Source: Candidatus Saccharimonadota bacterium
GTDB lineage: Bacteria > Patescibacteriota > Saccharimonadia > Saccharimonadales > Saccharimonadaceae
DNA: 64,000 nucleotides
NCBI GenBank assembly: GCA_017545505.1
Contig: JAFWNB010000003.1
Coordinates: forward strand, 76,830 to 140,829
Direction of reading: 5' to 3'
Shown here piece after piece: positions 3,413-26,552 of the stretch (position 1 is the stretch's first letter; every line of letters begins with the position of its first letter). A model generated the notes under the pieces. It was given only the letters and a program-made list of their open reading frames with translations. It had not been told where the DNA came from and did no database searches. A program made the position numbers and the translations under genes.

Positions 3413-3426
3413 TTTGATACTTAATT

Positions 3427-9890: not shown

Positions 9891-9930
9891 CAATGTGCTA
9901 TAATAAGCATAAGTAATATAAAGGATTTTT

Positions 9931-10554: not shown

Positions 10555-10589
10555 ATTATGTTATAATTAAGGCTCAAGGAGATCTTATT

Positions 10590-11465
10590 ATGCCAGTAAA
10601 AAAAGCAATCATCACTGATGCCGGTTTTGCTAGTCGGTTTTTACCGATTACTAAAACCATCCCTAAAGCTATGATACCAATTGGGGCTAAACCCGTAATG
10701 CAACTCTGCGTAGAAGAATGCGCCGCAGCCGGAATCGAAGAAATAATTATCGTTGTAGCACCAAATACTAAATCTAAAGAAATCTACGAAGATTATTTCC
10801 ATGGCCAATCCGAAAACGTCAAAGCCTTGTTAGATAAACAGGGAAAATCCGATCGCTTTGAACCAGTCAAAGAAATTTTAAATTTCCCCAAAATCACCAT
10901 TATAGAACAAGACTCTAGCTTACCTTACGGCAATGGTTCACCTATTGTCTCTGCCAAAGAATACGTCAAAGACGAAGAAGCTTTTGTAGTACTCTATAGT
11001 GACGATTTAATCCTTGGTGAAAGCGACGTTAAAATCTTGATCGATACCTACACTAACCACCCTTCAGCCAAAGCTGTAATTGCCGCCCAAGAAATGCCAG
11101 AAAAAGACTGGAGTAAATATGGTATGATCGCCTTAAAAGAAAACGGCACATTAAGTCATATCGTAGAAAAGCCAAAAACTCCAGATTTAAGCCCTAGCAA
11201 TCTAACCAGCTACGGGCGTTATTTACTAACTCCAGAAGTATTTGAGTACTTAATCCCATCAAATACTGGTCTAGATGATGAGCTTTGGACTGTAGATGCC
11301 ATTACAAAACTCGCCAAAAACGGCGATGTAATTATCGCAAAAAGTCAAGGCCATTGGATTACCACGGGTGACCCAAAAAACTATTTTCTAGCACAATTAA
11401 AGTATATTTTATCTGAAGCCGACTATGCAGATGATATTAGAAAAATCTGTGATACAATAAAATAA
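10590..11465 (+). CDS. galU: UTP--glucose-1-phosphate uridylyltransferase
   Basis: KAIITDAGFASRFLPITKTIPKAM, IVEKP, GRYLLTP. Confidence 0.8.
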   Translation: MPVKKAIITDAGFASRFLPITKTIPKAMIPIGAKPVMQLCVEECAAAGIEEIIIVVAPNTKSKEIYEDYFHGQSENVKALLDKQGKSDRFEPVKEILNFPKITIIEQDSSLPYGNGSPIVSAKEYVKDEEAFVVLYSDDLILGESDVKILIDTYTNHPSAKAVIAAQEMPEKDWSKYGMIALKENGTLSHIVEKPKTPDLSPSNLTSYGRYLLTPEVFEYLIPSNTGLDDELWTVDAITKLAKNGDVIIAKSQGHWITTGDPKNYFLAQLKYILSEADYADDIRKICDTIK

Positions 11466-11477
11466 AGGAGCATAATA

Positions 11478-11756
11478 ATGAATACAGCTGAATGGATTAT
11501 CGTAGCGATTCTAGCGATTACACTCTTAATCTTTTTAATCGTCGGAATTGTTTTAATAGTAAAACTAATTGACCTCACTAAAGAAGTAAAAGAAGTAGTT
11601 GTTGAAGGTCAAGATATCGCTAAAAATACCAACGGTATCGTTTCCAATGTTAAAGGTATGACATCAATCGGCGGAACCATCGAAATGTTTGTTGATAAAT
11701 ATATCAATCCCAAATTAAAAGATAAAATTAAAGAAACTAAAAAGGAGGAAAAGTAA
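11478..11756 (+). CDS. Membrane-anchored hypothetical protein (DUF948/YtxG-like)
   Basis: N-terminal TM then amphipathic/coiled region; adjacent to a YtxH-like gene. Confidence 0.55.
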   Translation: MNTAEWIIVAILAITLLIFLIVGIVLIVKLIDLTKEVKEVVVEGQDIAKNTNGIVSNVKGMTSIGGTIEMFVDKYINPKLKDKIKETKKEEK

Positions 11757-11757
11757 A

Positions 11758-11982
11758 ATGGCAGAAAAATCTGAAAAGTCCGAAAAAGGTAAAAGTGGTG
11801 CAGGTAAATTCTTTTTAGGCGCTCTACTTGGTGGTATCGCTGGAGCAGTCGCTGGTAAATTTATCAAAATTGGCGCAGATGACGGCGGCGAAGAAATTGA
11901 AGAAAAATGCAATTGCAAAGGTAAATGTGATTGCAAAAAAGAGCCAGAAAAGAAACCGGAAGAAAAAAGTACTAAGAAATGA
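11758..11982 (+). CDS. YtxH-like small protein
   Basis: GKFFLGALLGGIAGAVAG motif, charged tail, SD aggagg. Confidence 0.6.
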   Translation: MAEKSEKSEKGKSGAGKFFLGALLGGIAGAVAGKFIKIGADDGGEEIEEKCNCKGKCDCKKEPEKKPEEKSTKK

Positions 11983-14900
11983 AATTAAAGCCTAGTGATT
12001 TTGTACACCTACACAATCACACGCATTATTCTTTACTGGATGGGCTAACTAAAATCCCAGAACTTGTTGATTTTGTTAAAAAAGATGGCATGGAAGCCGT
12101 AGCCGTTACAGACCATGGCACTATGTCTGGTTTGGTAGAGCTATATAAAGAATGTAACGATAAAGGAATTAAACCAATTCTCGGTCTTGAGGCTTATGTT
12201 GCAGCTCGCAAAATGACAGACAAAGACCCAGCTCACGATAAACAAAGATTCCACATTACTTTGCTTGCCATGAATAATCAAGGTTATGAAAACCTTTGTC
12301 GGATTATGAGTAATGCAGAAGAATATGGTAAATATTACAAACCTCGTACAGACCACGACGAGTTAGAAAAATATAATGAAGGAGTCATATGTCTCTCTGG
12401 TTGTATGGGGTCAGAAATCTCCGAAGCTATTCGTGCAAACGACGACAAAAGAGCATTAGACCTGATAGAGTGGTATAAAAATACCTTTAAAGACCGTTTT
12501 TACCTAGAAATGCAGGACCATGGCCACCCGAAATCCTCTACTCATTCTGAAGAGCAAAAGAAAGTTAACGATTGGCTTATGGCGCACGCCAAAGAACTAA
12601 ATCTTCCACTCGTCGTTACCTGCGATGCTCACTATTTAAAACACGAGGACCAAGATGCGCACGAAGTTTTACTTTGTATTGGTACAGCCGCATATCTTTC
12701 TGACACTAATCGTATGAGCTTAAAAGATTACGACCTCCATGTTATTTCGTCGCAAGAAATAATTGACCACTGGCAAGATACCTGCCCGGAAGCCGTGTTG
12801 AACACTAAAAAAATCGCCGAGCGCTGCAACGTAGATTTGCAACTTGGTCGTATTTTGATTCCGAAATTTCCAGTTCCAGATGGTGAAGACGAAAAAACGT
12901 ATTTAGACAAACTAGTTTTTCAAGGTCTAACTCATCGTTACGGCGACAAAAGTCTTGAAGAAGCCACGAAACTAGACATAAAAGCTTGCCGCAAAATACT
13001 AACTGAAGTCGATAAAAAACGTGACGACGACCATAAAATACTCCCGCGCATCGACTATGAACTGTCTGTAGTAGATAAAATGGGCTATAATGGCTACTTT
13101 TTGATTGTGCAAGACTTCATTAACTGGGGTAAAAGCCAACGAATCGTTTATGGCCCAGGCCGTGGCTCTGCAGCTGGCTCAATTTTAGCATACGCTCTTA
13201 GGATAACTGACCTAGACCCCCTCAAATATGATCTTCTTTTCGAAAGATTTCTAAATCCAGACCGTATTAGTATGCCAGATATCGATACCGATATTCAGGA
13301 TACTAGACGCGACGAAGTAATTGAATATTGTACAAGAAAATATGGTGAAGCAAGAGTATCAAACATCGCAACCTTTGGTAAAATGATGGCTAAAAACGCC
13401 GTACGAGATGTCGCACGCGTACTAGAAGTACCCTACGCTGAGGCAGATCGCTTGGCAAAGCTTGTCCCAGATCCAGTACAAGGTCATCATGTACATCTCG
13501 CTGATGCAATTAAAGACGTACCAGATCTAAAACAAGAATATGAAACCAACCCCACCTCTAAAGAAGTTATAGATTTTGCTTCTAGACTGGAAGGAACCAT
13601 TAGGAATCACGGCGTTCACGCATGTGGTGTTATCATCGCGCCAGATGATTTGGTTAAGTTCTTACCGCTAGAAGTTTCCGCTAAGGGTCCAATCGCTGCC
13701 CAATTCCCAATGGGTCAAGTCGAAGAACTAGGTCTGCTTAAGATGGATTTTCTTGGCTTGTCTAACCTTTCGGTTATTAATAATGCCTTGCGTATGATTC
13801 GCAAAGTCTATCATAACGATATAAACTTATCCAATCTTCCATTGGACGACAAAAAGACCTACGAACTACTACAACGCGCCGAAACCACCGGTGTATTCCA
13901 ATTGGAATCTGCCGGTATGAAACGGTACTTAAAAGATCTCAAAGCTTCTACCTTTGAAGATATTATCGCTATGGTGGCATTATATCGTCCAGGACCAATG
14001 CAGTTTATTGATTCATTTATTAAGAGAAAACACGGCGAAGAAAAAATCACCTATCTTCACCCTGGTCTAGAAAATTCGCTTAAAAACACCTACGGGATTT
14101 TAATTTACCAAGAACAGTTCATGCAGATTAGTAAGGAATGGTGTGGCTTTACTGGCGGCCAGGCCGATACTTTACGTAAAGCCGTAGGAAAGAAAAAAGT
14201 CGATCTCATGAATAAGGTCAAACCGGAATTCATTGAAGGGGCAATTAAAGTTGGTGGGGCAACTAAAGAAATTGCCGAAACTTTCTGGGATCAGTTGCTA
14301 GAATTTGCGAATTATTGCTTCAATAAGTCACATGCCGCATGTTACGCTTTAATAGCCTATTGGACAGCCTACCTAAAAGCGCATTACCCCGATGCCTTTA
14401 TGGCGGCACTTATGACGGCAGATATGCGCTGGACCGATCGCCTTGCTATCGAAATCGCTGAGTGTAAAAAAATGGGATTAAAAGTATTAGGCCCAGATAT
14501 CAACGAGAGCTATGGTGATTTTGGCATCGTAGGCGGTGAAAAAACCATACGCTTTGGTCTTTCTGGTATCAAAAACATGGGCAAGGCCTTAGTAGAGGAA
14601 TACGTCATACCAGAGCGCGACAAAAATGGTCCGTTCAAATCTGTTTGCGATTTTGCTAAACGAGTAGATTCCACTAAATTTAATAAAAAATCCTGGGAAT
14701 CCGCCATCAAAACCGGTGCATTTGACCGTTTTGGATCTTCGCGCTCAGATTTATTGTTTAATCTAGAAGCTATTCAGGCTTATGGAGCTAAAATTCAAAA
14801 AGATGTAGGTTCTGGCCAAACTGATTTATTTGGTATGATGGGCGAAGCTGGGGCAATCCCAGAAGTAGAAATCAAACCCGCTCCAGTACAACATCCAGAC

Positions 14901-15695
14901 AAAGAGTTACTTCTTTGGGAACGCGATTTAATGGGGCTTTATCTTTCAGCCCACCCACTAGATAAATACGACACTTACTTCGAAGAACAAACCCATCCAA
15001 TGTCTTTAATAACAGCCGAAAATGACAACAAAATTGTAACAATCGGCGGAATTATCACGACCGTACGTACCATTTTAACGAAAAAAGGCGATAAAATGGC
15101 CTTTGTTAAAATAGAGAATAAAACCGACGAAACCGAATTTATAGTTTTTCCGAGTATATTTGAAGAATTTGGAGGAAAACTAGTAGTCGACAACGTCGTT
15201 AAAGTGAGAGGGCGCGTCAATGCTAAAGATAAAAATGGCAACGTTACTTCTGACGCTAAAATACTAGCAGAAGCTGTAGAATTGATTTCGGACGAAATCC
15301 TAGAAAACTATAAATCAACCGGCACCAAATTAGCCGCGCCAATCACCGCGCCAAATCAAGGTCAAAAAAGAGGTCGCTCATCAGCCGAAAGAGTCTATAA
15401 TAAAACGCAAAAGGATTCTTCAATACCAGAAGAAAAACATATTTTAAAAGAGCCACCCAAAGACCCCCGTAAAGAACGCTTATATATTTTAATTAATAAT
15501 CCAGAAGACACGGAAACACTAACCGCCATTCGCCGCCTAGCAGACATCTACCTCGGGATGCAAGAAGTGATATTAGTATTGAAAAATGGCGAAGAAAAAC
15601 GCCCACTCCGTATGCCATTTAAAGTTGAAGTAAGTGAAGAATTACTTACAAAACTGAACGATTTAGTAGGCGCAGACAACGTCAAATTATGCTAA
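11979..15695 (+). CDS. dnaE: DNA polymerase III alpha subunit
   Basis: PHP FVHLHNHTHYSLLDG, GPGRGSAAGS, MPDIDTD, FNKSHAACY, OB fold. Confidence 0.98.
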   Translation: MKLKPSDFVHLHNHTHYSLLDGLTKIPELVDFVKKDGMEAVAVTDHGTMSGLVELYKECNDKGIKPILGLEAYVAARKMTDKDPAHDKQRFHITLLAMNNQGYENLCRIMSNAEEYGKYYKPRTDHDELEKYNEGVICLSGCMGSEISEAIRANDDKRALDLIEWYKNTFKDRFYLEMQDHGHPKSSTHSEEQKKVNDWLMAHAKELNLPLVVTCDAHYLKHEDQDAHEVLLCIGTAAYLSDTNRMSLKDYDLHVISSQEIIDHWQDTCPEAVLNTKKIAERCNVDLQLGRILIPKFPVPDGEDEKTYLDKLVFQGLTHRYGDKSLEEATKLDIKACRKILTEVDKKRDDDHKILPRIDYELSVVDKMGYNGYFLIVQDFINWGKSQRIVYGPGRGSAAGSILAYALRITDLDPLKYDLLFERFLNPDRISMPDIDTDIQDTRRDEVIEYCTRKYGEARVSNIATFGKMMAKNAVRDVARVLEVPYAEADRLAKLVPDPVQGHHVHLADAIKDVPDLKQEYETNPTSKEVIDFASRLEGTIRNHGVHACGVIIAPDDLVKFLPLEVSAKGPIAAQFPMGQVEELGLLKMDFLGLSNLSVINNALRMIRKVYHNDINLSNLPLDDKKTYELLQRAETTGVFQLESAGMKRYLKDLKASTFEDIIAMVALYRPGPMQFIDSFIKRKHGEEKITYLHPGLENSLKNTYGILIYQEQFMQISKEWCGFTGGQADTLRKAVGKKKVDLMNKVKPEFIEGAIKVGGATKEIAETFWDQLLEFANYCFNKSHAACYALIAYWTAYLKAHYPDAFMAALMTADMRWTDRLAIEIAECKKMGLKVLGPDINESYGDFGIVGGEKTIRFGLSGIKNMGKALVEEYVIPERDKNGPFKSVCDFAKRVDSTKFNKKSWESAIKTGAFDRFGSSRSDLLFNLEAIQAYGAKIQKDVGSGQTDLFGMMGEAGAIPEVEIKPAPVQHPDKELLLWERDLMGLYLSAHPLDKYDTYFEEQTHPMSLITAENDNKIVTIGGIITTVRTILTKKGDKMAFVKIENKTDETEFIVFPSIFEEFGGKLVVDNVVKVRGRVNAKDKNGNVTSDAKILAEAVELISDEILENYKSTGTKLAAPITAPNQGQKRGRSSAERVYNKTQKDSSIPEEKHILKEPPKDPRKERLYILINNPEDTETLTAIRRLADIYLGMQEVILVLKNGEEKRPLRMPFKVEVSEELLTKLNDLVGADNVKLC

Positions 15696-15705
15696 AAAAT
15701 AAAAC

Positions 15706-15801
15706 TGTCGAACCAACTTCGACAATTTTTGGCAATAATTACCACTGTTATTTGCAATTTTGCGATTAATTATTTACTTTTTGTCAAATTTAGTATATAA
15801 T
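15706..15801 (+). repeat. Promoter block copy 1 (palindrome + TTTACT-17-TATAAT)
   Basis: Near-identical to 18558-18652. Palindrome tgtcgaa-ccaac-ttcgaca at 15706-15724; -35 at 15773-15778; -10 at 15796-15801. Confidence 0.85.
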
Positions 15802-15937
15802 TAGCACAGTTCAAAAAAATGAACTAGTCCATTAAAAAAGAAGGGTTTCGACCTTTCGCGACAAATATTCCTCCAAGTAAACTTGGAGTTTTATATATAA
15901 GTTGTCAAGTTGAAAACAAATAGAAAGGAGAGACATT

Positions 15938-16129
15938 ATGAAGAAAATGTCCAACGAAACCCCGAAGATCCGCAGAGCGAAGCAGGCGACACCGCCGCCG
16001 CTGCCTCCCAGGAGAGAAAAACCGGCACCTCCGCCGCTTCCTCCTCGGAGAACAGAACAGGCGCCCCCGCCGCTGCCTCCCAAAAGGAAAAAAACGGCAC
16101 CCCCGCCGCTTCCTCCTCGGAGAAAATAA
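15938..16129 (+). CDS. 63-aa Pro/Arg-rich peptide with four PPPLPP(R/K)R repeats
   Basis: SD aaggag 8 nt upstream; 36-nt repeat units with synonymous Pro codon variation. Confidence 0.7.
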   Translation: MKKMSNETPKIRRAKQATPPPLPPRREKPAPPPLPPRRTEQAPPPLPPKRKKTAPPPLPPRRK

Positions 16130-16138
16130 ATTAGGCAT

Positions 16139-16485
16139 AGATCTGTCACCTAAATGGGATACCATTTAGGTGATCCGACCTTAAGTCGGATCTTGTCCCC
16201 AGCTTAGCTGGGTCTCATGGAGCGAAAAAAGCCAAGAAGACAAATCTTGGCGATGCGCACGCCAAGATAAACTCTTACTCTTTGGTGGACGCACCAAGAG
16301 ATGGCTTTATAAGCAGTGAGACAGATCTGGGAGCCCGCGTAGTTACGCAATATCATTCCGGAGTCTTCCTATCTAGTAGAGATTATCTCACTGGATAGGA
16401 ACGTTCTCCGAAGGCGCCCCCCACACGCGACCTTCTAGCTGATATCGGCAGAAGGATAGTGACGAAAGGAGAAATCCTTCGCGTA
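16139..16485 (+). ncRNA. Unidentified structured RNA, copy 1
   Basis: ~125-nt core (16199-16322) near-identical to 19178-19303 with compensatory changes; shared 3' domain acgcg...agga-GAAA-tcct...cgcgt. Confidence 0.7.
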
Positions 16486-16494
16486 AACCAGTTA

Positions 16495-16526
16495 CCCCCG
16501 ACTCAGAAAGAGTTGGGGGCTTTTTA
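16495..16526 (+). terminator. Intrinsic terminator of cassette 1
   Basis: cccccgactc-agaaa-gagttggggg then cttttt. Confidence 0.8.
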
Positions 16527-16595
16527 TGCTATAATTAAGCTAGACCCGGCGAGGATAACCTCTTAAACTCTTACGACCGAGTAGCAGGAGGCTAT

Positions 16596-16817
16596 ATGGA
16601 AATCAATCCTTTAACCACCATTATTCGCGATCGAAATAACACTAAAAAATACTTCATCTATACTTTCTATTCCGAACAGACAAAAAAATGGGAAACCGTT
16701 GCCGTAAAGAAAGTTAATTATGAAAGTATCAAGGAAGTCAAAATGGAACAATCGTATTCCCGCGAAGAAGCTCTTCGCCACCATTTAGACTTCATCGCCC
16801 ACTACAGTGTTTTTTAG
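16596..16817 (+). CDS. Hypothetical protein (73 aa)
   Basis: SD aggagg, own terminator hairpin at ~16836-16870. Confidence 0.65.
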   Translation: MEINPLTTIIRDRNNTKKYFIYTFYSEQTKKWETVAVKKVNYESIKEVKMEQSYSREEALRHHLDFIAHYSVF

Positions 16818-16986
16818 AGTTTTTTGATAGCACCTTCAGCCCAGATTGTATCTGGGCATTTTTCTTTTTTTATCATTTATTTTAAATATATACAAATTTA
16901 TATAATAGATATTGACTATTTATACACTATATGATATAATCAAAAAGTAAGCCTTTAGGCTAGGTACTTTTACAGTGCAGGATTAC

Positions 16987-17052
16987 TGATTGCAGAATAG
17001 GGTTTGACGGGATAATTACATTTACATCTCTTTTAATCCTATTCTGCAATCA
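16987..17052 (+). promoter_or_regulatory. Long leader hairpin upstream of the sigma4/alpha-CTD gene
   Basis: Perfect 15-bp stem tgattgcagaatagg/cctattctgcaatca, downstream of a TTGACT...TATAAT promoter. Confidence 0.5.
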
Positions 17053-17142
17053 ACTAAATCAAAAAAGGCGTAGCAAGGAGACGCTTTCCAGGTTTAAAGC
17101 AGAGTAACTTGAAAAAAATCGAAAAGAAAGGCGAACGAAAAA

Positions 17143-17973
17143 GTGGGAAAAAGCAGAGAAAAATATAATATCTTCGGAACTAACAAAGAAACTTGGGGCC
17201 AGCGCCTCGCAAATGCTATTTGCGGGCATTCATACGAGTATGGTATACTTGGATGCTTCCTTACGGAAGTGACCGAACTCCTTAAGGCAAAACTCTCTGA
17301 AAGAGAGTTCGAAATTGCCGTAAGGTGTTTCGGTATAAATGCCGCAAATAAAAGAGAGACTCAAAAGGCTGTAGCTGCCAGTTTGGGTATCGCGGAGTCC
17401 CAGATGAGATCCACATCCAAAAAGGTTGTGGAAAAAATCAACCGGACCTGCGGTCCAGACCTGAGGGGGCTAATGCTGAAACCCGATGAGGTCTCGAAAA
17501 GAATCGTCGGCCTAGAACACGAAAACGAGCGACTCAGAAAGCAAGCGGTGGACCCCGCTAGCTTCACGCGCCTTCAGCAGGAGGCCAAAAACGCTCGGAA
17601 CGCCTATGCCGGCGAAAAGGCCAAGCGCGAAAAGCTTGAAGCCGAACTTGCTAAGCTTGTCGCCTCAGTCGAGAAGCTCAAGGAAGAGCGCCGAGTCGCT
17701 ATTAACGAAAAGGCGAAAGCCCTGAGCAAATACGACGCAATAGTAACTCAGGTAACCAACGTGATAACAGCAACGATAGACTTTAACGTCACGTTAGAGA
17801 CCTTTGACTTCAGCGCGGAAACCATGAATGAGCTCACTAGAGCTCATATCGTGAGTGTAGAAGCTCTTCTAAAGAGAGACTCTCACTCCCTCCGAAGATT
17901 AGGAGTGAGCAATAAAGCGATCTCTGAAATCATGGAGAAACTGAGGCTTAAGGGCTTCGAGCTGACCGCGTAA
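17143..17973 (+). CDS. sigma70 region 4 HTH + coiled coil + RNA polymerase alpha-CTD-like fusion protein
   Basis: LSEREFEIAVRCFGI...TQKAVAASLGI (sigma4 pattern); LETFDFSAETMNELTRAHIVSVEALL...EIMEKLRLKGFEL (alpha-CTD pattern). GTG start; terminator ~17997-18028. Confidence 0.6.
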   Translation: MGKSREKYNIFGTNKETWGQRLANAICGHSYEYGILGCFLTEVTELLKAKLSEREFEIAVRCFGINAANKRETQKAVAASLGIAESQMRSTSKKVVEKINRTCGPDLRGLMLKPDEVSKRIVGLEHENERLRKQAVDPASFTRLQQEAKNARNAYAGEKAKREKLEAELAKLVASVEKLKEERRVAINEKAKALSKYDAIVTQVTNVITATIDFNVTLETFDFSAETMNELTRAHIVSVEALLKRDSHSLRRLGVSNKAISEIMEKLRLKGFELTA

Positions 17974-18083
17974 AGTCCTACATACAACCTTGCACTAACC
18001 AGCGAATATTAATTCGCTGGTTTTTTTATAAAAATGGCCCGTTCAATGAACGAGCCGGTTTTGATGAAAATGGTTTTGGTAAA

Positions 18084-18386
18084 TTAATAATAATTAATTG
18101 CCTTTTTGTAACTCGTATCGTCCAAGATTTCCCTGATAGTCTTCTCGACAAAAGGAAAAACGGTCTTAGTTTCTGCATCTATAAACCCGATTTTTATTAA
18201 CCTATTAATTATAATAGAATCGAGAATCGGTTCCGCAAAAACACAATACGAACCAAGAGCCATAAAGGCATCGAAATCCTTCGCAACTAAAATGAGCGTC
18301 CTACACAGTATTTCTCCATATGTTAGCTCTTTCGAATCGTTACGGTTCGGCTTTCGGCCTTTCGCAAAACTAATAATATCCCCCAT
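18084..18386 (-). CDS. Hypothetical protein
   Basis: ATG 18386 after ggag; hairpin terminator ~18032-18062. Confidence 0.55.
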   Translation of the reverse strand: MGDIISFAKGRKPNRNDSKELTYGEILCRTLILVAKDFDAFMALGSYCVFAEPILDSIIINRLIKIGFIDAETKTVFPFVEKTIREILDDTSYKKAINYY

Positions 18387-18557
18387 CTTATTATCTCCCA
18401 TCTGACAAAAGTACAATACCTACAGTTAAAAGTATATTATATTAATATAACACATAATATATTTCTAGTCAAGAAGACCGCAATAATTTGTCATCAATTA
18501 TATTTCAAATAGCTAGAAAAGATATTGGAAAGGTATATGATAAGTATAGATAGGATT

Positions 18558-18652
18558 TGTCGAACCAACTTCGACAATTTTTATAAAAATTACCCCTGTT
18601 ATTTGCAATTTTACGATTAATTATTTACTTTTTGTCAATTTTAGTATATAAT
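18558..18652 (+). repeat. Promoter block copy 2
   Basis: Near-identical to 15706-15801; -35 at 18624-18629, -10 at 18647-18652. Confidence 0.85.
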
Positions 18653-18786
18653 ATATCACAAGCTTACATAATTAAGCTAGAAATTTAAAAAGGAGGAGAT
18701 TATTCGCTTCATTTTCTTTTCGAAGGAATTTCCTTCGAAATTTCACATATAGAAACAATAAGGAAATTCACGAAAAGGAGATGCAT

Positions 18787-19062
18787 ATGTTCTACAAAAT
18801 CGCAAGCTTTCGGTATTATGATGGAGCCATCGACGAAAAAGCAAGCTTTTACGTCAAAGAGGAAGATATTTCTTCCTTCGTCAACTACCTGATAAAATGC
18901 GGTTATTCCGGCGAATTCGATGGAATTAGCGGTATCTACACCATAAAATCCTTCGATAGATATAATGATCCTATACATTCAACGATCATTATAGACCGGA
19001 TTCGCATCTTTAACAGGAAGAGGTGGCATTCATTTGTTCGCGATTCAGTGCCATCGTCTTGA
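18787..19062 (+). CDS. Hypothetical protein (cassette 2 cargo)
   Basis: SD aaaaggag 6 nt before ATG 18787; no similarity to the cassette 1 peptide. Confidence 0.6.
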   Translation: MFYKIASFRYYDGAIDEKASFYVKEEDISSFVNYLIKCGYSGEFDGISGIYTIKSFDRYNDPIHSTIIIDRIRIFNRKRWHSFVRDSVPSS

Positions 19063-19139
19063 CGTTGGGCTACTGACTTATCGGGAAAACCTTGCGGTTC
19101 GGTCGAAATCGTAGGAACGTTTATAAGACGTGATCGACC

Positions 19140-19384
19140 TTCTTCTATTGCTTAAATTATCGCCAGTTTAAGCATAACCAGTTCTACTGGGTCCCACGGA
19201 GCGAAACAAAAAGCCAAGAAGACAAATCTTGGCGGTGCGCACGCCAAAATAAACTCTTACTCTTTGGTGGACGCACCGAGAGAAGGCTTTATAAGCAGTG
19301 GGGTAGAAGAATTCCAAAAAGGCGGATAAAATCCGAACGAACGCGCTCCGATAAGGAGATACTAACAAAGGAGAAATCCTCGCG
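19140..19384 (+). ncRNA. Unidentified structured RNA, copy 2
   Basis: Homologous to 16139-16485; closing helix ttcttcta/tagaagaa; compensatory changes in several stems. Confidence 0.7.
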
Positions 19385-19387
19385 TAG

Positions 19388-19412
19388 GGAAAAGCCGCCT
19401 GAGCGGCTTTTT
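19388..19412 (+). terminator. Intrinsic terminator of cassette 2
   Basis: aaaagccgc-ctga-gcggcttttttt. Confidence 0.85.
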
Positions 19413-19484
19413 TTCATGCATTTAATATAATTCGTAATAAGATACCACTAAATGATTCTTTATCTATTATGGTATAATTAATCT

Positions 19485-19901
19485 ATGAAAAAGCCCAAAA
19501 CCCTAGATTCGGTAACAGTCAATCGTAAAGCAAAATACGATTATATTTTGGGCGATGAACTCACCGTAGGCATGGCACTTTCTGGGCCCGAAGTTCGCTC
19601 TATTCGCGATCATCACGTTCAGCTTAAGGGTTCATTTGTTACCATCAGAAACTCAGAGCTCTGGTTAAATAATCTTACTCTCGGCGCCGAAACTACCCGC
19701 AATATCAAGCTCCTCGCCACCAAAAAACAAATTAAAAGCCTGGAGCGCGAAAAGGTCGCCGGCTCCACCATCGTACCAGTCAAACTCCTTGGTGGTGCTC
19801 GCCATATTAAACTCGTAATTGCTATTGGCAAAGGAAAGAAAAAATATGACAAACGCGAATCAATCAAAAAACGCGACATAGAGCGAGGACGCTATGCTTA
19901 A
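19485..19901 (+). CDS. smpB: SsrA-binding protein
   Basis: NRKAKYDY, G..L.G.EV.SIR, IGKGKKKYDKRESIKKRD. Confidence 0.95.
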   Translation: MKKPKTLDSVTVNRKAKYDYILGDELTVGMALSGPEVRSIRDHHVQLKGSFVTIRNSELWLNNLTLGAETTRNIKLLATKKQIKSLEREKVAGSTIVPVKLLGGARHIKLVIAIGKGKKKYDKRESIKKRDIERGRYA

Positions 19902-20679
19902 AATCTATTCATGGAACGTAAATGGCTTGCGCGCGGTCATCAAAAAAGGAGCATTTCAGGATTTTATTACAAAAGAACACCCTGATATTTTATGTTTACA
20001 AGAAACTAAAGCTAAACAAGGTCAAGCCGAAATCGATCTTCCAGAATACGAAGAAATCTGGAATTCGGCTGAGCGACCAGGCTATTCTGGTACTGCAATT
20101 TTTACCAAAATTAAACCTTTATCCATCAAAAACACTCTCGAAACAAACAAAAATTTCGAAGATCAATTCGGTAATCCACTTACCGAGGGTCGCGTCCTTA
20201 CTGCTGAGTTTGAAATATTCTTTTTAGTTAACGTCTACACTCCAAATTCAAAAAACAATTTAGAAAGGTTAAATTTACGCGAAAAACTCTGGGATAAAGA
20301 ATTCTTGGAGTATCTCAAGAAACTGGAGAAGCAAAAACCCGTGGTAGTTTGTGGCGACTTTAACGCAGCTCACCAAGAAATAGATATCGCCAGACCAAAA
20401 ACCAATCATCACTCCGCCGGCTTCACTGACGAAGAAAGAAGGGGAATTACCAACTACATCAATGCCGGTTTTATCGACACTTTTCGTTATCTTTATCCAG
20501 ATTCCGTGCGCTATACTTGGTGGAGCCACTGGGGTAATGCCCGCGCTAATAATGTTGGTTGGCGTATCGACTATTTCTTCGTTTCTGAATCCCTCAAGAA
20601 TAATCTCAAATCCGCCGATATTTATGAAAAAATCATGGGATCCGATCATTGCCCAATTTCAATCGAACTGGAGTTTTAA
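19894..20679 (+). CDS. xth: Exodeoxyribonuclease III / AP endonuclease
   Basis: SWNVNGLRA, LQETK, GDFN, GWRIDYF, SDHCP. Confidence 0.95.
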   Translation: MLKIYSWNVNGLRAVIKKGAFQDFITKEHPDILCLQETKAKQGQAEIDLPEYEEIWNSAERPGYSGTAIFTKIKPLSIKNTLETNKNFEDQFGNPLTEGRVLTAEFEIFFLVNVYTPNSKNNLERLNLREKLWDKEFLEYLKKLEKQKPVVVCGDFNAAHQEIDIARPKTNHHSAGFTDEERRGITNYINAGFIDTFRYLYPDSVRYTWWSHWGNARANNVGWRIDYFFVSESLKNNLKSADIYEKIMGSDHCPISIELEF

Positions 20680-21452
20680 TGGATTATTTTGAAAAAATCG
20701 AAGTTCAAAAAGAAGATCTTACTTGGAACATACCAGAAACCAATCAAGGTTCCGTCAATGTAATTGGTGGAAATAGCAAACATTTTAAAACAGAAATCAA
20801 AACAACAGAATTTATAAGTAAATACCCTATCAAATCCCTAAAATTAATCCTACCGAACTCGCTAAAATCCCAACTACCTAATTTGCCAAATTTTACCTTC
20901 TTAGAGTCAACCGATTCAGGCTCATTTGCAAACGAAAATGAACTACTAGATTCTTTTAATTCTGCAGACTACAACCTTTTACTTGGAGACTTATCAAAAA
21001 ACACTATCACAGAAAAAGCGGTAGCAGCCGCGTGCAAAAACTCCGAAAAACCTCTGCTAATTACGCGCGATAGCATAGATTTAATCGCTAGTCATCAACC
21101 AGAAAAAGTATTAATGAATGAAAATGTTACCCTCATGGCCTCCATGGCGCAATTACAGAAACTATTTCGTGCGGTCTATTATCCTAAAATGTTGCTGCTT
21201 AGCCAATCCCTTATTCAAGTTGCCGAAACACTGCATAAGTTTACTCTAAGCTACCCCACTAAAATAATAACTCTCCATAGCGACCAAATTCTCATAGCAG
21301 AAAATGGGCAAGTAAAAGCTATCCAACTCGCAAAAACAAACTACAACGCTCTTTCTTTTTGGCAAGGAGAAGTCGCCGCCAAAATTGTGGCCCTTAATCT
21401 CTATAATCCAAACAATTTCATAAATGCCACAATTAGTGCGTTTTTTTCTTAG
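20679..21452 (+). CDS. YjeF C-terminal / carbohydrate-kinase-like protein (divergent)
   Basis: GSVNVIGG N-terminal pattern. Start ATG 20679 overlaps the xth stop (TAATG). Confidence 0.45.
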   Translation: MDYFEKIEVQKEDLTWNIPETNQGSVNVIGGNSKHFKTEIKTTEFISKYPIKSLKLILPNSLKSQLPNLPNFTFLESTDSGSFANENELLDSFNSADYNLLLGDLSKNTITEKAVAAACKNSEKPLLITRDSIDLIASHQPEKVLMNENVTLMASMAQLQKLFRAVYYPKMLLLSQSLIQVAETLHKFTLSYPTKIITLHSDQILIAENGQVKAIQLAKTNYNALSFWQGEVAAKIVALNLYNPNNFINATISAFFS

Positions 21453-22071
21453 CTAACTCTTTTTCAATTTCTACTGCATCACGCGAAACGTTTTTGCGAC
21501 GCTGTCTTAAGAAAAACCAGATAAAGACAAATATCGAACAGCCAAAGGCAAACAAAACTATTTTAACCGGCAATGGCCAGCTTGTAGCAAACAAAATAAA
21601 AGCATTTAATATTCCAAGACAAATTGTGTATAGATATCGCCTAGCTAAAACAATTTTCTTCGCTAATGGAAAATTTCTCCTAGTTAAAGAGTTTTTAGTA
21701 CAATTATCCGGATGTCCAAATAGTTTTCCATAAACAATTAATTCAATTGTGCCGCAAATTACTGTGTAATAAATAATCACAATCAGGCCAGCAATTACAT
21801 TAATACGTAACGTGACAAATAACACCTGGGCAACCGCTAGTAACGCATCTGAAACCATATCATATAATGCCGCATATTTACGATATTTTGGAATTTTATT
21901 CTTTGGAAATGGCCATTTTCGTGCGCAAGTCCCATCGAAAGTATCCGTAAGCTCTGCTGTCAAAAAAATTACAAATGCCGCATCTGCTGATCCGCCCGCA
22001 AAAGCCAGAACAAGTAATACAATGCCTAAAATAAATCTCGATAAAGTTAATAAATCTGCTAAATATCTCAT
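21433..22071 (-). CDS. CDP-alcohol phosphatidyltransferase family protein
   Basis: ADLLTLSR, TDTFDGTCARK, YDMVSD signature. Confidence 0.85.
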   Translation of the reverse strand: MRYLADLLTLSRFILGIVLLVLAFAGGSADAAFVIFLTAELTDTFDGTCARKWPFPKNKIPKYRKYAALYDMVSDALLAVAQVLFVTLRINVIAGLIVIIYYTVICGTIELIVYGKLFGHPDNCTKNSLTRRNFPLAKKIVLARRYLYTICLGILNAFILFATSWPLPVKIVLFAFGCSIFVFIWFFLRQRRKNVSRDAVEIEKELAKKKTH

Positions 22072-23300
22072 TCTTTTATTATATCATTAAATATTTTCTC
22101 CAAAATTTTTATTCTTTCTGAAGCTAATATTTCTTTACGATGCAAAATCATTACTTTGCTCATTTGCGAAATTTTTTCCGAATGACGCATTAAATTATCT
22201 AAAGCTTCGGCCATGCTATCGGAACTTTCGGACGCGCTCATTATAAAGCTTCCTTCCGGTACTACTTCCTTCATATCTGGATCACAAAAGAATACTGGTA
22301 CCGCGTAGGCCTCCGCCTCGATCAAAGTCATACCAAAAGTATCGAAATTATATGACACTAGAACATCTAAATGAGATCTATTAATTGCATCAGATAACTT
22401 ATCAAATGCCACATTACCGTGAAAAACCACGTTCATGTTATGTTTTTTTGAAAACCTTTGCGCACGCCAAAAATCTCCACCGCCACCATAAACGTCCATT
22501 TTATATTTTCCATTAACTTTTGACAACGCCCTTAAAAACGGCATCATACGCTTTTCGGCCGAAACTCTAGAATGCCAAATAATCTTTAATGTTTCATTTG
22601 GCGCCAAAGATTTAACTTCAGCTTTCTTGGGAAACATTTCATCTGAATAACTGTTCGGAAGCACCTTTATATCTTTTTTTACGCCATAATGTATTAGTTT
22701 TTGACGAAAATGATTGGACGGCGTCAAGACTAAATCAGCATAATTCGCATGGTTCACCATTAGAGTCCACATTTTGGCTTTTGCGATTGTATTAGCCAGA
22801 TAATCATCTCGGCACACCGTCTTAAAATGCGGCAAATACCACGAATGAAACCAATTTAATAATATTGCAACGATAGTCCTAAAACCAAAGGGAATAATAT
22901 TTCCTTCACCCATATCTTCTCGCCCATGCATTACTTGCACAGACGGAATCTTCAATCGACGCGCTAGTCTAAGACCTGCAATCGAACATCCCCCTTCATA
23001 ATGCACGTAAAAAACATCAAAATCCTTAATCTCTGGATATTTTTTTAGTAACCATTTTTCAATTATCTTTGGACGACGCGAAACAGGAGTTAGGCCACGA
23101 AAAAACAAACGACAACTTGGTACTTGAAAAATATTTTTTTCAGCTAATTTTTTTAACTCTTTATTATTTTTTGGGAAACCGGTACTAAAAATATAGACAG
23201 TGTGGCCGTTTTTCTCTAAAGCAACCTTTTGCGCATCGATTGAAGTTTTTATTCCGCCAGTTAAATCTAAATAACAATCAGAAAAGAAAGCAATTTTCAT
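22068..23300 (-). CDS. GT4 glycosyltransferase (possible glycolipid synthase)
   Basis: MKIAFFSDCY, DTFGMTLIEA. Start revised to 23300 (TATAAT-N6-ATG). Coupled to the CDP-alcohol phosphatidyltransferase. Confidence 0.85.
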   Translation of the reverse strand: MKIAFFSDCYLDLTGGIKTSIDAQKVALEKNGHTVYIFSTGFPKNNKELKKLAEKNIFQVPSCRLFFRGLTPVSRRPKIIEKWLLKKYPEIKDFDVFYVHYEGGCSIAGLRLARRLKIPSVQVMHGREDMGEGNIIPFGFRTIVAILLNWFHSWYLPHFKTVCRDDYLANTIAKAKMWTLMVNHANYADLVLTPSNHFRQKLIHYGVKKDIKVLPNSYSDEMFPKKAEVKSLAPNETLKIIWHSRVSAEKRMMPFLRALSKVNGKYKMDVYGGGGDFWRAQRFSKKHNMNVVFHGNVAFDKLSDAINRSHLDVLVSYNFDTFGMTLIEAEAYAVPVFFCDPDMKEVVPEGSFIMSASESSDSMAEALDNLMRHSEKISQMSKVMILHRKEILASERIKILEKIFNDIIKE

Positions 23301-23351
23301 ACCATCATTATACATCATTATTATTTGTGCTATAATAACTATACAATATTA

Positions 23352-23440
23352 ATATCAAGAAGGAGCGAGGGAACGGCCCAACGACCTCCTGCCAACCTAG
23401 CTTTGCCAAGGTGGTAATTCCGACCAGAAAGGAAAGATAT
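23352..23440 (+). promoter_or_regulatory. SAM-I riboswitch upstream of metK
   Basis: atatcaaga...gagggaacggccc...gccaacc...aaggtggtaattcc...gaaagatat matches the SAM-I core; P1 atatc/gatat abuts the start codon. Confidence 0.88.
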
Positions 23441-24482
23441 GTTCTATCGAACTGCGGAGAGTGTTTCTCCAAAACATCCAGACAAACTTTGCGACCAAAT
23501 CAGCGATGCGATTTTGGATGCCTATTTAGCTAAGGATCCTAACGCACGCGTAGCCGCCGAAACCTGTGGTGGACACGGCGTAGTATTTGTGACTGGCGAA
23601 ATCACCAGTACGGCGAACGAAGTAGATATTCCAAAAATCGTCAAACGCATTGCAGGTGATGATGTAGAAGTTCATACTAAAGTCGTCAAACAATCACCAG
23701 AAATCGCTCAAGGCGTAGATACTGGTGGTGCCGGCGACCAGGGAATCATGATTGGCTACGCCTGTGATGAAACTCCTGAAATGGTACCACGCGAAGTAAT
23801 CTTAGCTCGCCGCCTCAATCAGTTTATTTATGAAAAATATCCATATGACGGCAAAACTCAAGTCACTATCGCCCCGAACGGCTCGATCGATTCAATTGTG
23901 GCAAGTTTCCAGAATGTACCACACGATAAATTAGAAAAGTTGGTTCGAGAGTTTATTGAAAAATTTGGGTTAATTGATGCTCCAAAACCATATTCTGAGG
24001 ACCATAAGCTTGGGCGAGCGCCCTCGAGCGCGTCCGAAGAAGATGGTTTGGAGCACGCAATCAAACTTCACATTAACCCGGCTGGCGACTGGAACCAAGG
24101 CGGCTTCGATGCTGATACTGGACTTACCGGACGCAAGCTTATCGTAGATAATTATGGCCCACGCGTCGCTATTGGCGGTGGTTGCTATTCTGGCAAAGAT
24201 CCAAGTAAAGTAGACCGCTCCGCTGCCTACATGGCTAGAAAAATTGCCGTAGATTATTTAAAAAAACGCCACGCCCATGAAGTTTTAGTCCGCCTAGCTT
24301 ACGCCATCGGCTACGCCGAACCATTAGAAAAAACCGTAATCATCGATGGAAAACCCGAAGAAATCGAAGGTTACGACTTAACACCAAACGGTATTATTAA
24401 ATTCTTAGATTTAAAACGACCAATCTACGAAAAAACTGCTATGTGGGGCCACTACGGCGAAGGTTTTGACTGGGATAAATAA
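23439..24482 (+). CDS. metK: S-adenosylmethionine synthetase
   Basis: ESVSPKHPDKLCDQISD, GAGDQG, DTGLTGRKLIVD, GKDPSKVDRSAAY; carries a palindromic insertion. Confidence 0.97.
   Translation: MFYRTAESVSPKHPDKLCDQISDAILDAYLAKDPNARVAAETCGGHGVVFVTGEITSTANEVDIPKIVKRIAGDDVEVHTKVVKQSPEIAQGVDTGGAGDQGIMIGYACDETPEMVPREVILARRLNQFIYEKYPYDGKTQVTIAPNGSIDSIVASFQNVPHDKLEKLVREFIEKFGLIDAPKPYSEDHKLGRAPSSASEEDGLEHAIKLHINPAGDWNQGGFDADTGLTGRKLIVDNYGPRVAIGGGCYSGKDPSKVDRSAAYMARKIAVDYLKKRHAHEVLVRLAYAIGYAEPLEKTVIIDGKPEEIEGYDLTPNGIIKFLDLKRPIYEKTAMWGHYGEGFDWDK
23985..24049 (+). repeat. Palindromic repeat element, in frame within metK
   Basis: Core gaggaccataagcttgggcgagcgccctcgagcgcgtccga matches 46160-46225 and 57588-57660. 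Confidence 0.8.
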
Positions 24483-24500
24483 TCGTGCCATAATATATAC

Positions 24501-26267
24501 ATGGCAAAAACAGGAAACATAAAAAGAACATTACATTATTTTTGGTTAGCTTTAATGCAGCATAAAATTAGAGCTATACTATTGCTTATTTTGATTCCAA
24601 TTTGGATTTTTATTCTTAATGTCGTCGTCCCATACGGCACATCGCAAATTATCGGCAAATTATCAAGCGGTGATTTCGAAATCGAAAATTACATCGGCGT
24701 GCTACTATTAACGATATTACCAGCAGCTTTTAATAATCTCGCCATGGTACGCTTTATTGACTGGCTAGATTGGTCAATTGATGCGCTTAGCGGAGAATAT
24801 TTATCAAAATTAGCATTCAAGGCAGTTATAAATCAATCTATGACTTTTCATAGCGAAAAGTTTTCCGGCTCACTAATTAGTGCGGCCAACAAGTTGCCAA
24901 GAGCATTTATAAACTTCAAATCTAACTTTGTATGGGATTTTTATCCTTTAATTCTAACTACAATTTATTCAATAGTCGTAGCAGCATTAATCTGCGCGCC
25001 ATTCGCGGCAATCCTAGCAGCATTTACTATTATTTATACGGCAGTAGCAGTTACTACCTACTACAAAACACGTAAAGTTGACGAAAACCTAGCAAATGCC
25101 GAAAACAAACAAACCGGACAACTAGCAGATGCAATCACGAACGAGATGTCGGTAAAATCATACGCGCGCGAAAATCTAGAAAACACCAGATTTGCTATTG
25201 CTACTAAACACACTAAAAAAGCAACTTTTAACGTTGCTAAAGTTTCCATGTGGCGTAATCTTTCTATGAATATAGTAAATATGATAACCTTTGCGGGGTT
25301 GCTTATTCTGATCGTTATGAGCCATAATTGGTTTGGTCTTTCAGTGGCAAATATGGTCTTTTTGTATTCACTTTCAAATTCATTACTTTCAAAAGTTTGG
25401 ACAATTAATCATATTTTAAGATCTATCAACCGCTCATTTGGAGATGCAAAAGAAATAGTAGAAATCTTGGACCTTCCTTTAATAATTGATGACAAAACAG
25501 ACAAACCACTCAAAATTACACAGGCAGAAATATGCTTTAATCATATTGCATTTAAACACCATGATCAAAAAACTGAATTATTCAAGGATTTTTGCTTAAC
25601 CATCCCAAGCGGCAAAAGCATAGGTCTAGTTGGCGTATCTGGCTCTGGCAAGACTACACTAACTAAGCTTTTATTAAGATTTGACGACGTTACATCTGGC
25701 TCAATTGCTATAGACGGGCAAGATATCAAAGATGTGACCCAGAAAAGTTTACGCGAGAATATAGCATATGTCCCTCAGGAATCCTCACTATTTCATCGTT
25801 CAGTTTTTGAAAACATTGCCTACGGCAAAATAGATACTACAAAGGAAGAAGTTATTCGCGCCGCAAAACTAGCCAATGCGGATGAATTTATCAACGAACT
25901 TCCAAACAAATACGAAACCCTAGTCGGTGAACGCGGGATAAAACTATCTGGTGGCCAAAGACAAAGAATCGCAATTGCGCGAGCTATTTTAAAAGATGCA
26001 CCAATTTTAATCTTAGATGAAGCGACCTCCGCGCTAGACTCAGAATCTGAAGGATTAATTCAAGAAGCACTTAAAAATCTCATGAAAGGCCGTACCGCAA
26101 TCGTCGTAGCTCATCGCTTGTCTACTATTGCTGGACTAGACGAAATTGTTGTTTTAAAAAATGGCCGCATCGTTGAACGCGGCACACATCATGAATTATT
26201 AAAATCAAACAAAGAGTATGCTAAGCTTTGGTCAAAACAAAGTGGAGCATTTCTAAAAGAAAATTAA
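24501..26267 (+). CDS. ABC exporter, fused permease/ATPase (MsbA/multidrug-like)
   Basis: Six TM, GVSGSGKTT, LSGGQRQR, ILDEATSALD. Confidence 0.93.
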   Translation: MAKTGNIKRTLHYFWLALMQHKIRAILLLILIPIWIFILNVVVPYGTSQIIGKLSSGDFEIENYIGVLLLTILPAAFNNLAMVRFIDWLDWSIDALSGEYLSKLAFKAVINQSMTFHSEKFSGSLISAANKLPRAFINFKSNFVWDFYPLILTTIYSIVVAALICAPFAAILAAFTIIYTAVAVTTYYKTRKVDENLANAENKQTGQLADAITNEMSVKSYARENLENTRFAIATKHTKKATFNVAKVSMWRNLSMNIVNMITFAGLLILIVMSHNWFGLSVANMVFLYSLSNSLLSKVWTINHILRSINRSFGDAKEIVEILDLPLIIDDKTDKPLKITQAEICFNHIAFKHHDQKTELFKDFCLTIPSGKSIGLVGVSGSGKTTLTKLLLRFDDVTSGSIAIDGQDIKDVTQKSLRENIAYVPQESSLFHRSVFENIAYGKIDTTKEEVIRAAKLANADEFINELPNKYETLVGERGIKLSGGQRQRIAIARAILKDAPILILDEATSALDSESEGLIQEALKNLMKGRTAIVVAHRLSTIAGLDEIVVLKNGRIVERGTHHELLKSNKEYAKLWSKQSGAFLKEN

Positions 26268-26301
26268 GCCCGTAGGCTTATTCTATTTTCCATGCGTAGC
26301 A

Positions 26302-26417
26302 TGGTGGGCGAAGAGGGAATCGATTCGAAGAACGATTCCAACTTTTTACATACGCAGTATGGTGGGCGAAGAGGGAATCGATTCGAAGAACGATTCCAAC
26401 TTTTTACATACGCAGTA
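26302..26417 (-). repeat. Two tandem 58-bp repeats each ending in the tRNA-Leu 3' end (incl. CCA)
   Basis: tggtgggcgaagagggaatcga at 26302, 26360 and 26418 with identical intervening sequence. Confidence 0.9.
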
Positions 26418-26504: not shown

Positions 26505-26552
26505 GTGTCAATAATTATACCATATCTAAATCTGATATGCTATAATAAACCT

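Follow-up and report, generated by a model that had tools for sequence, protein, structure and literature searches.

Two gene cassettes of a ruminant-gut Saccharibacterium that probably encode a new family of structured RNA

We describe two elements on the + strand of a 64,000-nucleotide (nt) stretch of Candidatus Saccharimonadota DNA (hereafter the window; contig JAFWNB010000003.1, positions 76,830 to 140,829), at 16139-16484 (copy 1) and 19140-19385 (copy 2) in window coordinates. They are very probably paralogous genes of a genuine new family of structured non-coding RNA (ncRNA), about 250-350 nt long. A new multi-domain ncRNA family had been proposed in the original prediction, made from the letters of the window alone, and is borne out by the lack of any Rfam match, by covariation with a homologue and by the accumulation of transcripts. 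It did not extend to three features described below: the cassettes that begin with a small open reading frame, their place in a strain-variable island, and the very narrow distribution of the family. The family is new in the sense that no relative of it could be detected; a novel principle of action is not demonstrated. Towards the combined statement, that the family is new and that its members are autonomous, stable RNA or ribonucleoprotein (RNP) scaffolds, we lean with some confidence, while the specific scaffold or dimer mechanism is put forward only tentatively.

The host is a ruminant-gut Candidatus Nanosyncoccus, in agreement with the Saccharibacteria named in the original prediction. 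The DnaE encoded in the window is 74-88% identical to that of 80 Candidatus Nanosyncoccus species (Saccharibacteria), and the window sequence is present in many gut and rumen metagenomes from yak, goat, sheep and cattle. Contig L112, whose DnaE is 91% identical to that of the window, represents the most closely related Nanosyncoccus species. This contig holds a third full-size RNA (97 bits by covariance model R1; placed at 5664-5834, with 122 bits, by model R2), of which contig L114 carries a strain variant.

Two similar RNAs in dissimilar surroundings

The cores of the two copies are 92% identical over 114 nt (16208-16318 against 19187-19300), while their flanks do not align; the 3' domain gives a second, short match (16455-16485 against 19358-19386). 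BLAST and MAFFT agree on both, confirming what had been read from the sequence: near-identical cores and a separately conserved 3' domain. The core positions given by model R1 are 16197-16322 and 19176-19304. The compensatory differences listed in the original prediction are all present. CCAGC/GCUGG in copy 1 becomes CCAGU/ACUGG in copy 2, CUCAU/GUGAG becomes CCCAC/GUGGG, and where CACCAAGAG is replaced by CACCGAGAG the substituted base faces U. The closing helix P1 can be extended to 9 base pairs (bp), AGAUCUGUC/GACAGAUCU in copy 1 and UUCUUCUAU/GUAGAAGAA in copy 2. The 3' domain follows the consensus ACGCG-(variable hairpin)-AUAnUnACnAA-AGGA-GAAA-UCCU-(U)CGCGU, and the linker that precedes it varies in length from 96 nt in copy 1 to 29 nt in copy 2 and 78 nt in L112. 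Each copy ends, as predicted, just before an intrinsic terminator (Table 1).

Fold and covariation

Both elements fold far better than expected from their composition. The folding energy of copy 1 (16135-16490) has z = -9.4, with none of 100 shuffles folding as well, and that of copy 2 (19136-19390) has z = -5.2, with none of 200. The model is a nine-helix RNA in which P1 closes a core built on a multi-way junction of P1, P2, P3 and P4. This junction continues, by way of a conserved internal loop (AGCGAAA facing AUAAGC), into P5, which bears the conserved hairpins P6/P7 and P8. The variable linker follows the core, and after it comes the 3' domain, a small three-way element whose GAAA tetraloop is invariant. 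When whole transcripts of 720-760 nt are folded, the P1-closed core and the 3' domain still form independently; a fold-back pairing of the 5' leader with the 3' domain does not recur in these full-length folds and was rejected.

Covariation argues for this fold. In an Infernal alignment of four distinct cores, the 59 pairs of the model are 97.4% paired, compared with 31-44% when partners are slid, and 17 of the 59 have changed on both sides, compared with 1-4 for slid partners, a level that none of 500 shuffles reaches. A manual table of helices that includes the 3' domain counts 22 of 66 pairs as compensatory, six of them in the alignable helices P3, P4, P5, P7 and P9. The last of these changes from ACGCG/CGCGU to GGGCG/CGCCC among the full-size RNAs. 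The G-U pairs of the fold work only on the + strand. Covariation among homologues had been anticipated, and the L112 RNA, from a second species, adds covarying pairs.

The L112 homologue also decides between two competing folds of the core, since it keeps P5, P7 and P8 and breaks one pair of the alternative. P5 reads AAAGCC/GGCUUU against AGAGCC/GGCUCC. In P7, UCUUGGCG-RUGCGCA-CGCCAAGA, an A-U pair has become C-G and the helix is lengthened to 12 bp, and in P8, CUCUU(U/C)GGUG-GACG-CAC(C/UG)AAGAG, an inserted G turns a bulged U into a C-G pair. The chosen fold has the minimum free energy (MFE) in five of six sequence variants, the exception being copy 2 of the window. The alternative fold of that copy is built from the alternately complementary segments GCCAAGA/UCUUGGC/GCCAAGA/CUUUGGU/ACCAAGA. 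A two-state switch was considered and rejected, as the alternative wins only in this copy. A pseudoknot of the P8 loop GGACG with J2/3, possible in copy 1 and L112 and absent in copy 2, was rejected as well.

The invariant unpaired elements are AGCGAAA opposite AUAAGC, the P7 loop RUGCGCA, the loop GACG and the GAAA tetraloop of the 3' domain. The P7 loop, in which the palindrome UGCGCA is contained, does not vary among the three full-size RNAs.

Might the conserved segment be no RNA at all, and instead encode a peptide or act at the DNA level, for example as a recombination site or as an operator palindrome (TCTTGGCG-N7-CGCCAAGA)? In both window copies one + frame runs open across the core, a 3-nt indel keeps it, four of the six core substitutions are synonymous in it, and the P7 hairpin is a near-perfect DNA palindrome. 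This frame, however, has neither a start codon nor a Shine-Dalgarno (SD) sequence, is shifted by 1-nt indels in L112, where a stop appears, and collects mostly non-synonymous changes among metatranscriptome variants; no called gene overlaps the RNA in any contig. A DNA site does not explain nine helices with compensatory changes and strand-specific G-U pairs, and there is no recombinase within 10 kb. The open reading frames (ORFs) on the - strand of the RNA region are absent from a collection of 15 billion proteins, and a profile of the - strand core translation drew only tandem-repeat junk from 1.84 billion representatives. We regard a coding or DNA-level reading as largely refuted and extremely improbable.

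Expression

RNA evidence came from the assembled contigs of six rumen or gut metatranscriptomes (X19, X21, X22, X24, X28 and X29). In all six the RNA elements give contigs, 188-342 nt long (Table 1). Comparison of X22, X24, X28 and X29 with positions 8001-28000 of the window shows that only the RNA elements were assembled from this organism; whatever else matches there consists of 30-40-nt fragments of tRNA or metK that belong to other organisms. In five of the metatranscriptomes no other long transcript of this region is assembled. Taken together, contig depth and sole assembly indicate that the RNA part is much more abundant or stable than dnaE, smpB, metK and the cassette ORFs. The region is therefore transcribed, as the original prediction required of a real RNA, and its elements accumulate.

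Several considerations weigh against this reading of the elements as a new RNA family with a role of its own. Only three independent full-size sequences are available, from two closely related species, plus minor variants, and formal covariation statistics of the R-scape type are not possible. The four-core alignment was fitted to the structure model, and P1 and P2 of copy 2 cannot be aligned with the others, so that "compensation" there means a conserved position and not step-wise covariation. Two linked changes in copy 2 (19248 G>A and 19278 A>G) weaken P7 and P8, and because of them the MFE structure of this copy is the alternative fold. Four of the six metatranscriptome contigs that cover both positions differ there from the window, and those of X28 and X29 match its letters. 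A 6-nt palindrome among several loops has, by our rough estimate, a chance expectation of about 10-15%, and only its invariance argues for a role. The contigs have neither strand nor true ends and their depth is unreliable; a degradation-resistant 3' fragment would look alike. Finally, no partner, ligand or target of the RNA has been identified.

One way in which the 3' part of a transcript might come to accumulate is catalysis, with a self-cleaving or otherwise catalytic RNA freeing itself from the mRNA. The complex junctions with their invariant unpaired nucleotides would suit such an RNA, as would its accumulation apart from the ORF part. Against this, the abundant X19 contig begins about 100 nt upstream of P1 (19043) and not at a domain border, and Rfam 15 has no ribozyme model that matches at E<=10. 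The "ribozyme" half of the original prediction accordingly finds no support in a model match or in a cleavage site (the data being assembled contigs, with RNA ends unmapped), and we consider catalysis very improbable.

Cassette structure and the proposed mode of action

Each RNA forms the 3' part of a cassette, in the order promoter module, leader, small ORF, RNA and intrinsic terminator. An upstream repeat of 141 nt is common to both cassettes (15706-15844 and 18558-18696, 84% identity) and comprises a terminator-like hairpin, a conserved box and the TTTACT-17-TATAAT promoter. The two window cassettes contain different ORFs and the same RNA: ORF63 in the first is unrelated to ORF93 in the second. 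In L112, the full-size RNA sits behind an 88-amino acid (aa) homologue of ORF93 and the same promoter module.

This arrangement invites another explanation, in which the RNA is a cis-acting element of the 3' untranslated region (3'-UTR) that shields the mRNA of the small ORF against 3'-to-5' decay or adjusts its translation, and the abundant RNA is a nuclease-resistant remnant with no role in trans. The RNA lies directly behind a small ORF in all three full-size cases, in copy 1 and L112 the distance from the stop codon, counted from its first base, to the start of P1 is 10-12 nt, ORF and RNA have a promoter and a terminator in common, and the ORF part is present in X19 at lower depth. In copy 2, however, the ORF stops 78 nt upstream of P1, and no conserved pairing of the leader or SD with the 3' RNA is predicted. 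The loops and junctions RUGCGCA, GACG, AGCGAAA, AUAAGC and GAAA stay constant while stems change, which exceeds the needs of a stability element, and the same junction core occurs in an RNA that has no ORF. We think a purely cis-acting role unlikely.

That ORF-less RNA lies in L112 directly after dnaE (3378-3740), is driven by a promoter and has no Rfam match. It contains a probable mini version of the core at 3488-3584, with P1 UCCCACAA/UUGUGGGA, P3 CCAGU/ACUGG and P4 UCUGC/GCAGA. Both junctions, AGCGAAA and AUAAGC, are present with the 2-nt and 1-nt spacings of the full-size RNAs, and an 18-nt insert caps P5 in place of P6-P8. From its sequence and predicted pairing we take it to be a probable mini relative of the RNA core. 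It is a borderline match (E about 0.06), and the bare descriptor, which demands neither the P3 hairpin nor exact spacing, is matched by chance about once in 1.76 Mb; this too counts against the reading built on it.

We speculate that the RNA is released from, or outlives, the ORF part of its transcript, and that it acts as an independent structured RNA or RNP and not as a regulator of its own ORF, because the same junction core occurs in the ORF-less, promoter-driven RNA of L112. The functional site would be the P1/P3/P4 junction with its AGCGAAA/AUAAGC loop, which may bind a protein or make a tertiary contact. Further tertiary contacts, or self-association, might be provided by P6-P8 and the GAAA-capped 3' domain, and the palindromic P7 loop RUGCGCA could let two RNA molecules pair as a kissing dimer.

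Could the partner instead be the small protein encoded in the same transcript? If protein and RNA formed a pair like those of toxin-antitoxin or effector-immunity systems, the downstream RNA would neutralise or chaperone a small basic protein of the ORF63 or ORF93 family, and the whole would be a mobile accessory module. Protein and RNA are indeed co-transcribed in self-contained cassettes that are gained, lost and swapped between strains, and the small proteins, which are basic, lack known relatives. The RNAs nevertheless contain no tandem repeats and are accompanied by no nuclease-like toxin as in type III systems, unrelated ORFs accompany the same RNA in the two window cassettes, and the structure model of ORF93 resembles no known toxin fold. 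We judge such a pair quite improbable.

Comparison with known RNA families

Rfam 15 (4227 families) was searched at gathering score and permissively at E<=10. Only two tRNAs and an S-adenosylmethionine (SAM) riboswitch reach gathering score in the window, all away from the RNA elements. At E<=10 with permissive filters, no match overlaps either element, ribozyme models included, and the L112 homologue has no match at E<=5. The original prediction, which could name no known family, agrees with cmscan at both thresholds. No relative was found by BLAST among phage genomes, five exact patterns gave chance matches or nothing in IMG/VR, and we found no description of this RNA in the literature. A metagenome scan with one 18-mer (TAAACTCTTACTCTTTGG), which varies among natural variants, returned six chance matches.

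Several known classes were considered and rejected. Transfer-messenger RNA (tmRNA, ssrA) was checked because smpB adjoins copy 2, which thus resembles it as a structured, stable RNA adjacent to that gene. However, the elements have no tRNA-like domain and no tag ORF, ARAGORN finds no tmRNA in the window, and there is no match to the tmRNA models of Rfam. In most relatives dnaE abuts smpB with nothing between, and the L112 RNA is not beside smpB. A riboswitch or attenuator was rejected because the RNA lies 3' of its ORF; the terminators are 75-170 nt from the conserved core and share no strand with it, and genes downstream of the RNAs have their own -10 boxes after the terminator. A type III toxin-antitoxin RNA was set aside for want of tandem repeats in the RNA (self-BLAST) and of a nuclease-like neighbour; apart from coiled-coil noise, the proteins encoded nearby match no nuclease and nothing in PADLOC or PHROG. 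Against an integron attC or other recombination site stand the length of 250-350 nt, the nine covarying helices, the strand-specific G-U pairs and the absence of a recombinase domain among called genes within 6-10 kb (L102, L112). Repeats of a diversity-generating retroelement were rejected because the differences between copies are not A-specific.

Other classes offer partial likenesses. RNAs of the raiA motif class span a few hundred nt, are built on a multi-helix junction, keep the nucleotides of junction and loops invariant while their peripheral hairpins vary, and are abundant, with a function that is not known. The present RNA is like them (RF03072), and like other orphan structured bacterial ncRNAs that comparative genomics has brought to light, in size, junction architecture, invariant loops and abundance. 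It differs from the raiA motif in giving no cmscan match, in belonging to another phylum, in being accessory and strain-variable instead of broadly conserved, and in lying behind a small ORF. ROOL and GOLLD are large, ornate RNAs, associated with the rumen and with prophages and reported to form RNA-only multimers. A rumen or gut origin, variable or mobile DNA, an ornate fold and possible self-association (here suggested by the palindromic loop) are common to them and the present RNA, which is, however, about half their size or less, has no model match and no tRNA or prophage neighbourhood, and was not found in IMG/VR with five patterns. Stable RNAs derived from 3'-UTRs likewise share promoter and terminator with an upstream ORF and have a 3' part more abundant than the coding part. 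They are usually short, Hfq-dependent, base-pairing small RNAs, whereas the present RNA is a large multi-domain fold with no seed or target identified.

At the level of motifs, the UAA/GAN internal-loop module has the signature ccUAAg/uGAagg between two flanking helices (Lee, Gutell & Russell 2006, as described in PMC2615604). The invariant loop GC-GAA / UAA-GC resembles the core of this signature, also in the mini relative, as a sequence signature only; it differs in its surplus unpaired A residues on the P5 side, and the module is a building block, not a family. The self-complementary hexamer UGCGCA in the P7 hairpin loop is reminiscent, as a sequence, of kissing-loop RNAs such as the dimerisation initiation site (DIS) of HIV-1.

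An accessory island at an insertion hot spot

Across the 40 species, among loci L009-L088, that have both genes on the locus, the gap between dnaE and smpB ranges from 11 nt to 5.4 kb. It measures 11-149 nt in 26 of them; in the remaining 14 there are inserts of 0.3-5.4 kb, unrelated in content. Since most gaps are short and the remainder are filled by variable, unrelated inserts, positions 15696-19484 of the window are an accessory, strain-variable island at a dnaE-smpB insertion hot spot. A general rule that this slot holds structured RNAs was rejected, as small ORFs are the main cargo of other islands.

Strains differ in this island. In ten contigs of the same species both RNA copies are present and unchanged. 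Four others (L096, L097, L099 and L100) are without 15780-16435 and 16845-19465, and with these both RNA cores are lost. In L095 and L098, a different RNA, about 330 nt long, ORF-less and promoter-driven, takes the place of 15739-16514. Elements are thus deleted or replaced in sister strains, and so whole transcription units are exchanged or lost and the RNA is not essential; it would be dispensable for growth, because there are sister strains without it. The ORF-less RNA of L095 (1112-1464) has a very stable fold (z = -9.9), no Rfam match and no mini-core. The first slot after dnaE thus holds other stable ORF-less RNAs in a sister strain (L095) and in a related species (L112).

No third copy of the RNA was found elsewhere in the 64-kb window, and none within 10 kb of dnaE in 80 Nanosyncoccus dnaE loci, chosen for synteny (nhmmer, BLAST, motif co-occurrence and model R1). 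As far as seen here, only two sister species of Nanosyncoccus from the ruminant gut have the family, and ORF276 and ORF110 share this distribution. The true distribution of the family may be wider, because the metagenome pattern proved variable and the genome scan served synteny. The narrow distribution lowers the likely general importance of the family.

Saccharibacteria and other bacteria within the candidate phyla radiation (CPR) have tiny genomes with little room for non-essential DNA, and to our knowledge almost nothing is known of CPR non-coding RNAs. Here two diverged copies of an RNA are kept and expressed above every neighbouring gene, yet strains gain, lose and exchange them. An RNA of this kind likely serves conflict or host-interaction biology rather than housekeeping. 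In its boldest form, the RNA would be the core of a new accessory module in an obligate epibiont, a self-assembling RNA or RNP, dimeric or higher, or a new catalytic RNA, made abundantly with small proline/arginine-rich proteins and acting on the ribosome, phages or the host bacterium. We hold this to be decidedly unlikely; if true, it would mean a biochemical role outside all known RNA classes. Were a biochemical role to be found, the family would form a new class among the few large bacterial RNAs and provide a handle on the accessory functions of uncultivated rumen epibionts.

Features of the cassettes and neighbouring genes

Table 1. Features of the island, with the metatranscriptome contigs that match it, in window coordinates
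Feature	Position	Strand	Remarks
Terminator-like hairpin after dnaE	15706-15724	+	TGTCGAACCAACTTCGACA + T-run; first element of cassette repeat
Promoter module, cassette 1	15739-15801	+	box TTACCnCTGTTATTTGCAATTTT; -35 TTTACT 15773-15778, 17 nt, -10 TATAAT 15796-15801
ORF63	15938-16129	+	63 aa, proline/arginine-rich; good SD; called as gene in related contigs
RNA copy 1, core domain	16139-16328	+	folding, covariation
Copy 1 P1	16139-16147/16320-16328	+	
Copy 1 P2	16148-16171	+	
Copy 1 extra hairpin	16172-16192	+	not in copy 2
Copy 1 P3	16199-16211	+	
Copy 1 P4	16214-16218/16316-16320	+	followed by J AGCGAAA
Copy 1 P5	16228-16233/16303-16308	+	
Copy 1 P6	16237-16240/16273-16276	+	
Copy 1 P7	16244-16268	+	loop AUGCGCA
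Copy 1 P8	16278-16300	+	loop GACG; then J AUAAGCA
Copy 1 variable linker	16329-16424	+	two hairpins, 96 nt
Copy 1 3' domain	16425-16484	+	P9 ACGCG/CGCGU around variable hairpin, AUAGUGACGAA, hairpin AGGA-GAAA-UCCU
Intrinsic terminator, cassette 1	16495-16525	+	
ORF276	17143-17973	+	sigma-region-4-like helix-turn-helix, coiled coil, RpoA-CTD-like domain
ORF110	18084-18416	-	no known domain; sole homologue a 109-aa ORF next to ORF295 in L112
Hairpin and promoter module, cassette 2	18557-18652	+	-35 18624-18629, -10 18647-18652
ORF93	18781-19062	+	93 aa (91 aa from ATG 18787); good SD; 36% identity to 88-aa ORF before L112 RNA
RNA copy 2, core domain	19140-19311	+	P1 19140-19148/19303-19311; helices as copy 1
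Copy 2 linker	19312-19340	+	
Copy 2 3' domain	19341-19385	+	P9 19341-19345/19381-19385; GAAA-capped hairpin
Intrinsic terminator, cassette 2	19387-19414	+	GCCGC-CUGA-GCGGC + U7; read from sequence, folded
X19 contig	19043-19385		depth 34 against 2-9 for contigs of ORF276, ORF93 and ORF63
X21 contig	16128-16331		
X22 contigs	16183-16368 and 19010-19302		
X24 contig	19048-19362		
X28 contig	19121-19338		
X29 contig	19055-19325		

The promoter module, a box (TTACCnCTGTTATTT) followed by TTTACT-17-TATAAT, occurs at 15739-15801 and 18590-18652 in the window, at 7401-7464 in L022 and at 5170-5248 in L112. This conserved module heads island cassettes in at least three species, and a dedicated regulator, for instance ORF276, may target it. 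Before the small ORF, a leader hairpin is followed by a U-rich UUUYAYAUA tract (15871-15888, 18718-18740 and L112 5310-5330), which together could be an attenuator-like element.

ORF63 contains four tandem (A/T)PPPLPP(R/K)R repeats, encoded by a 75-nt DNA repeat, and ends in ...PPRRK-stop. Proline-rich repeats of this kind resemble SH3-ligand or proline-rich antimicrobial-peptide motifs. The 88-aa ORF before the L112 RNA, though otherwise unrelated-looking to ORF63, ends in ...ALPPRRN-stop. A frameshifted PPRR tail for ORF93 was considered and rejected, as was stop-codon read-through, since several in-frame stops follow. The structure model of ORF93 (predicted local distance difference test, pLDDT, 79) has no fold match in PDB.

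Between the cassettes lie ORF73, ORF276 and ORF110, the last on the - strand. ORF276 is under purifying selection, with 11 of 13 variant sites at third codon positions, and has one distant relative among 5.8 billion proteins, on contig L112. Upstream of it (16912-17142) are a near-consensus promoter, TTGACT-17-TATAAT with TG, and then a leader, about 200 nt long, in which 16987-17052 form an inverted repeat of 66 nt. The families of ORF276, ORF93 and ORF110 each occur only in the window species and one other.

Beyond the island, smpB (start 19485) lacks an SD, and a TATAAT box lies only about 7 nt ahead of its ATG (19466-19487), so that its mRNA may be leaderless. The SAM riboswitch mentioned above is of the SAM-I type (23349-23443, 58.8 bits), lies upstream of an S-adenosylmethionine synthetase gene and is kept in the related species L011, L017 and L061.

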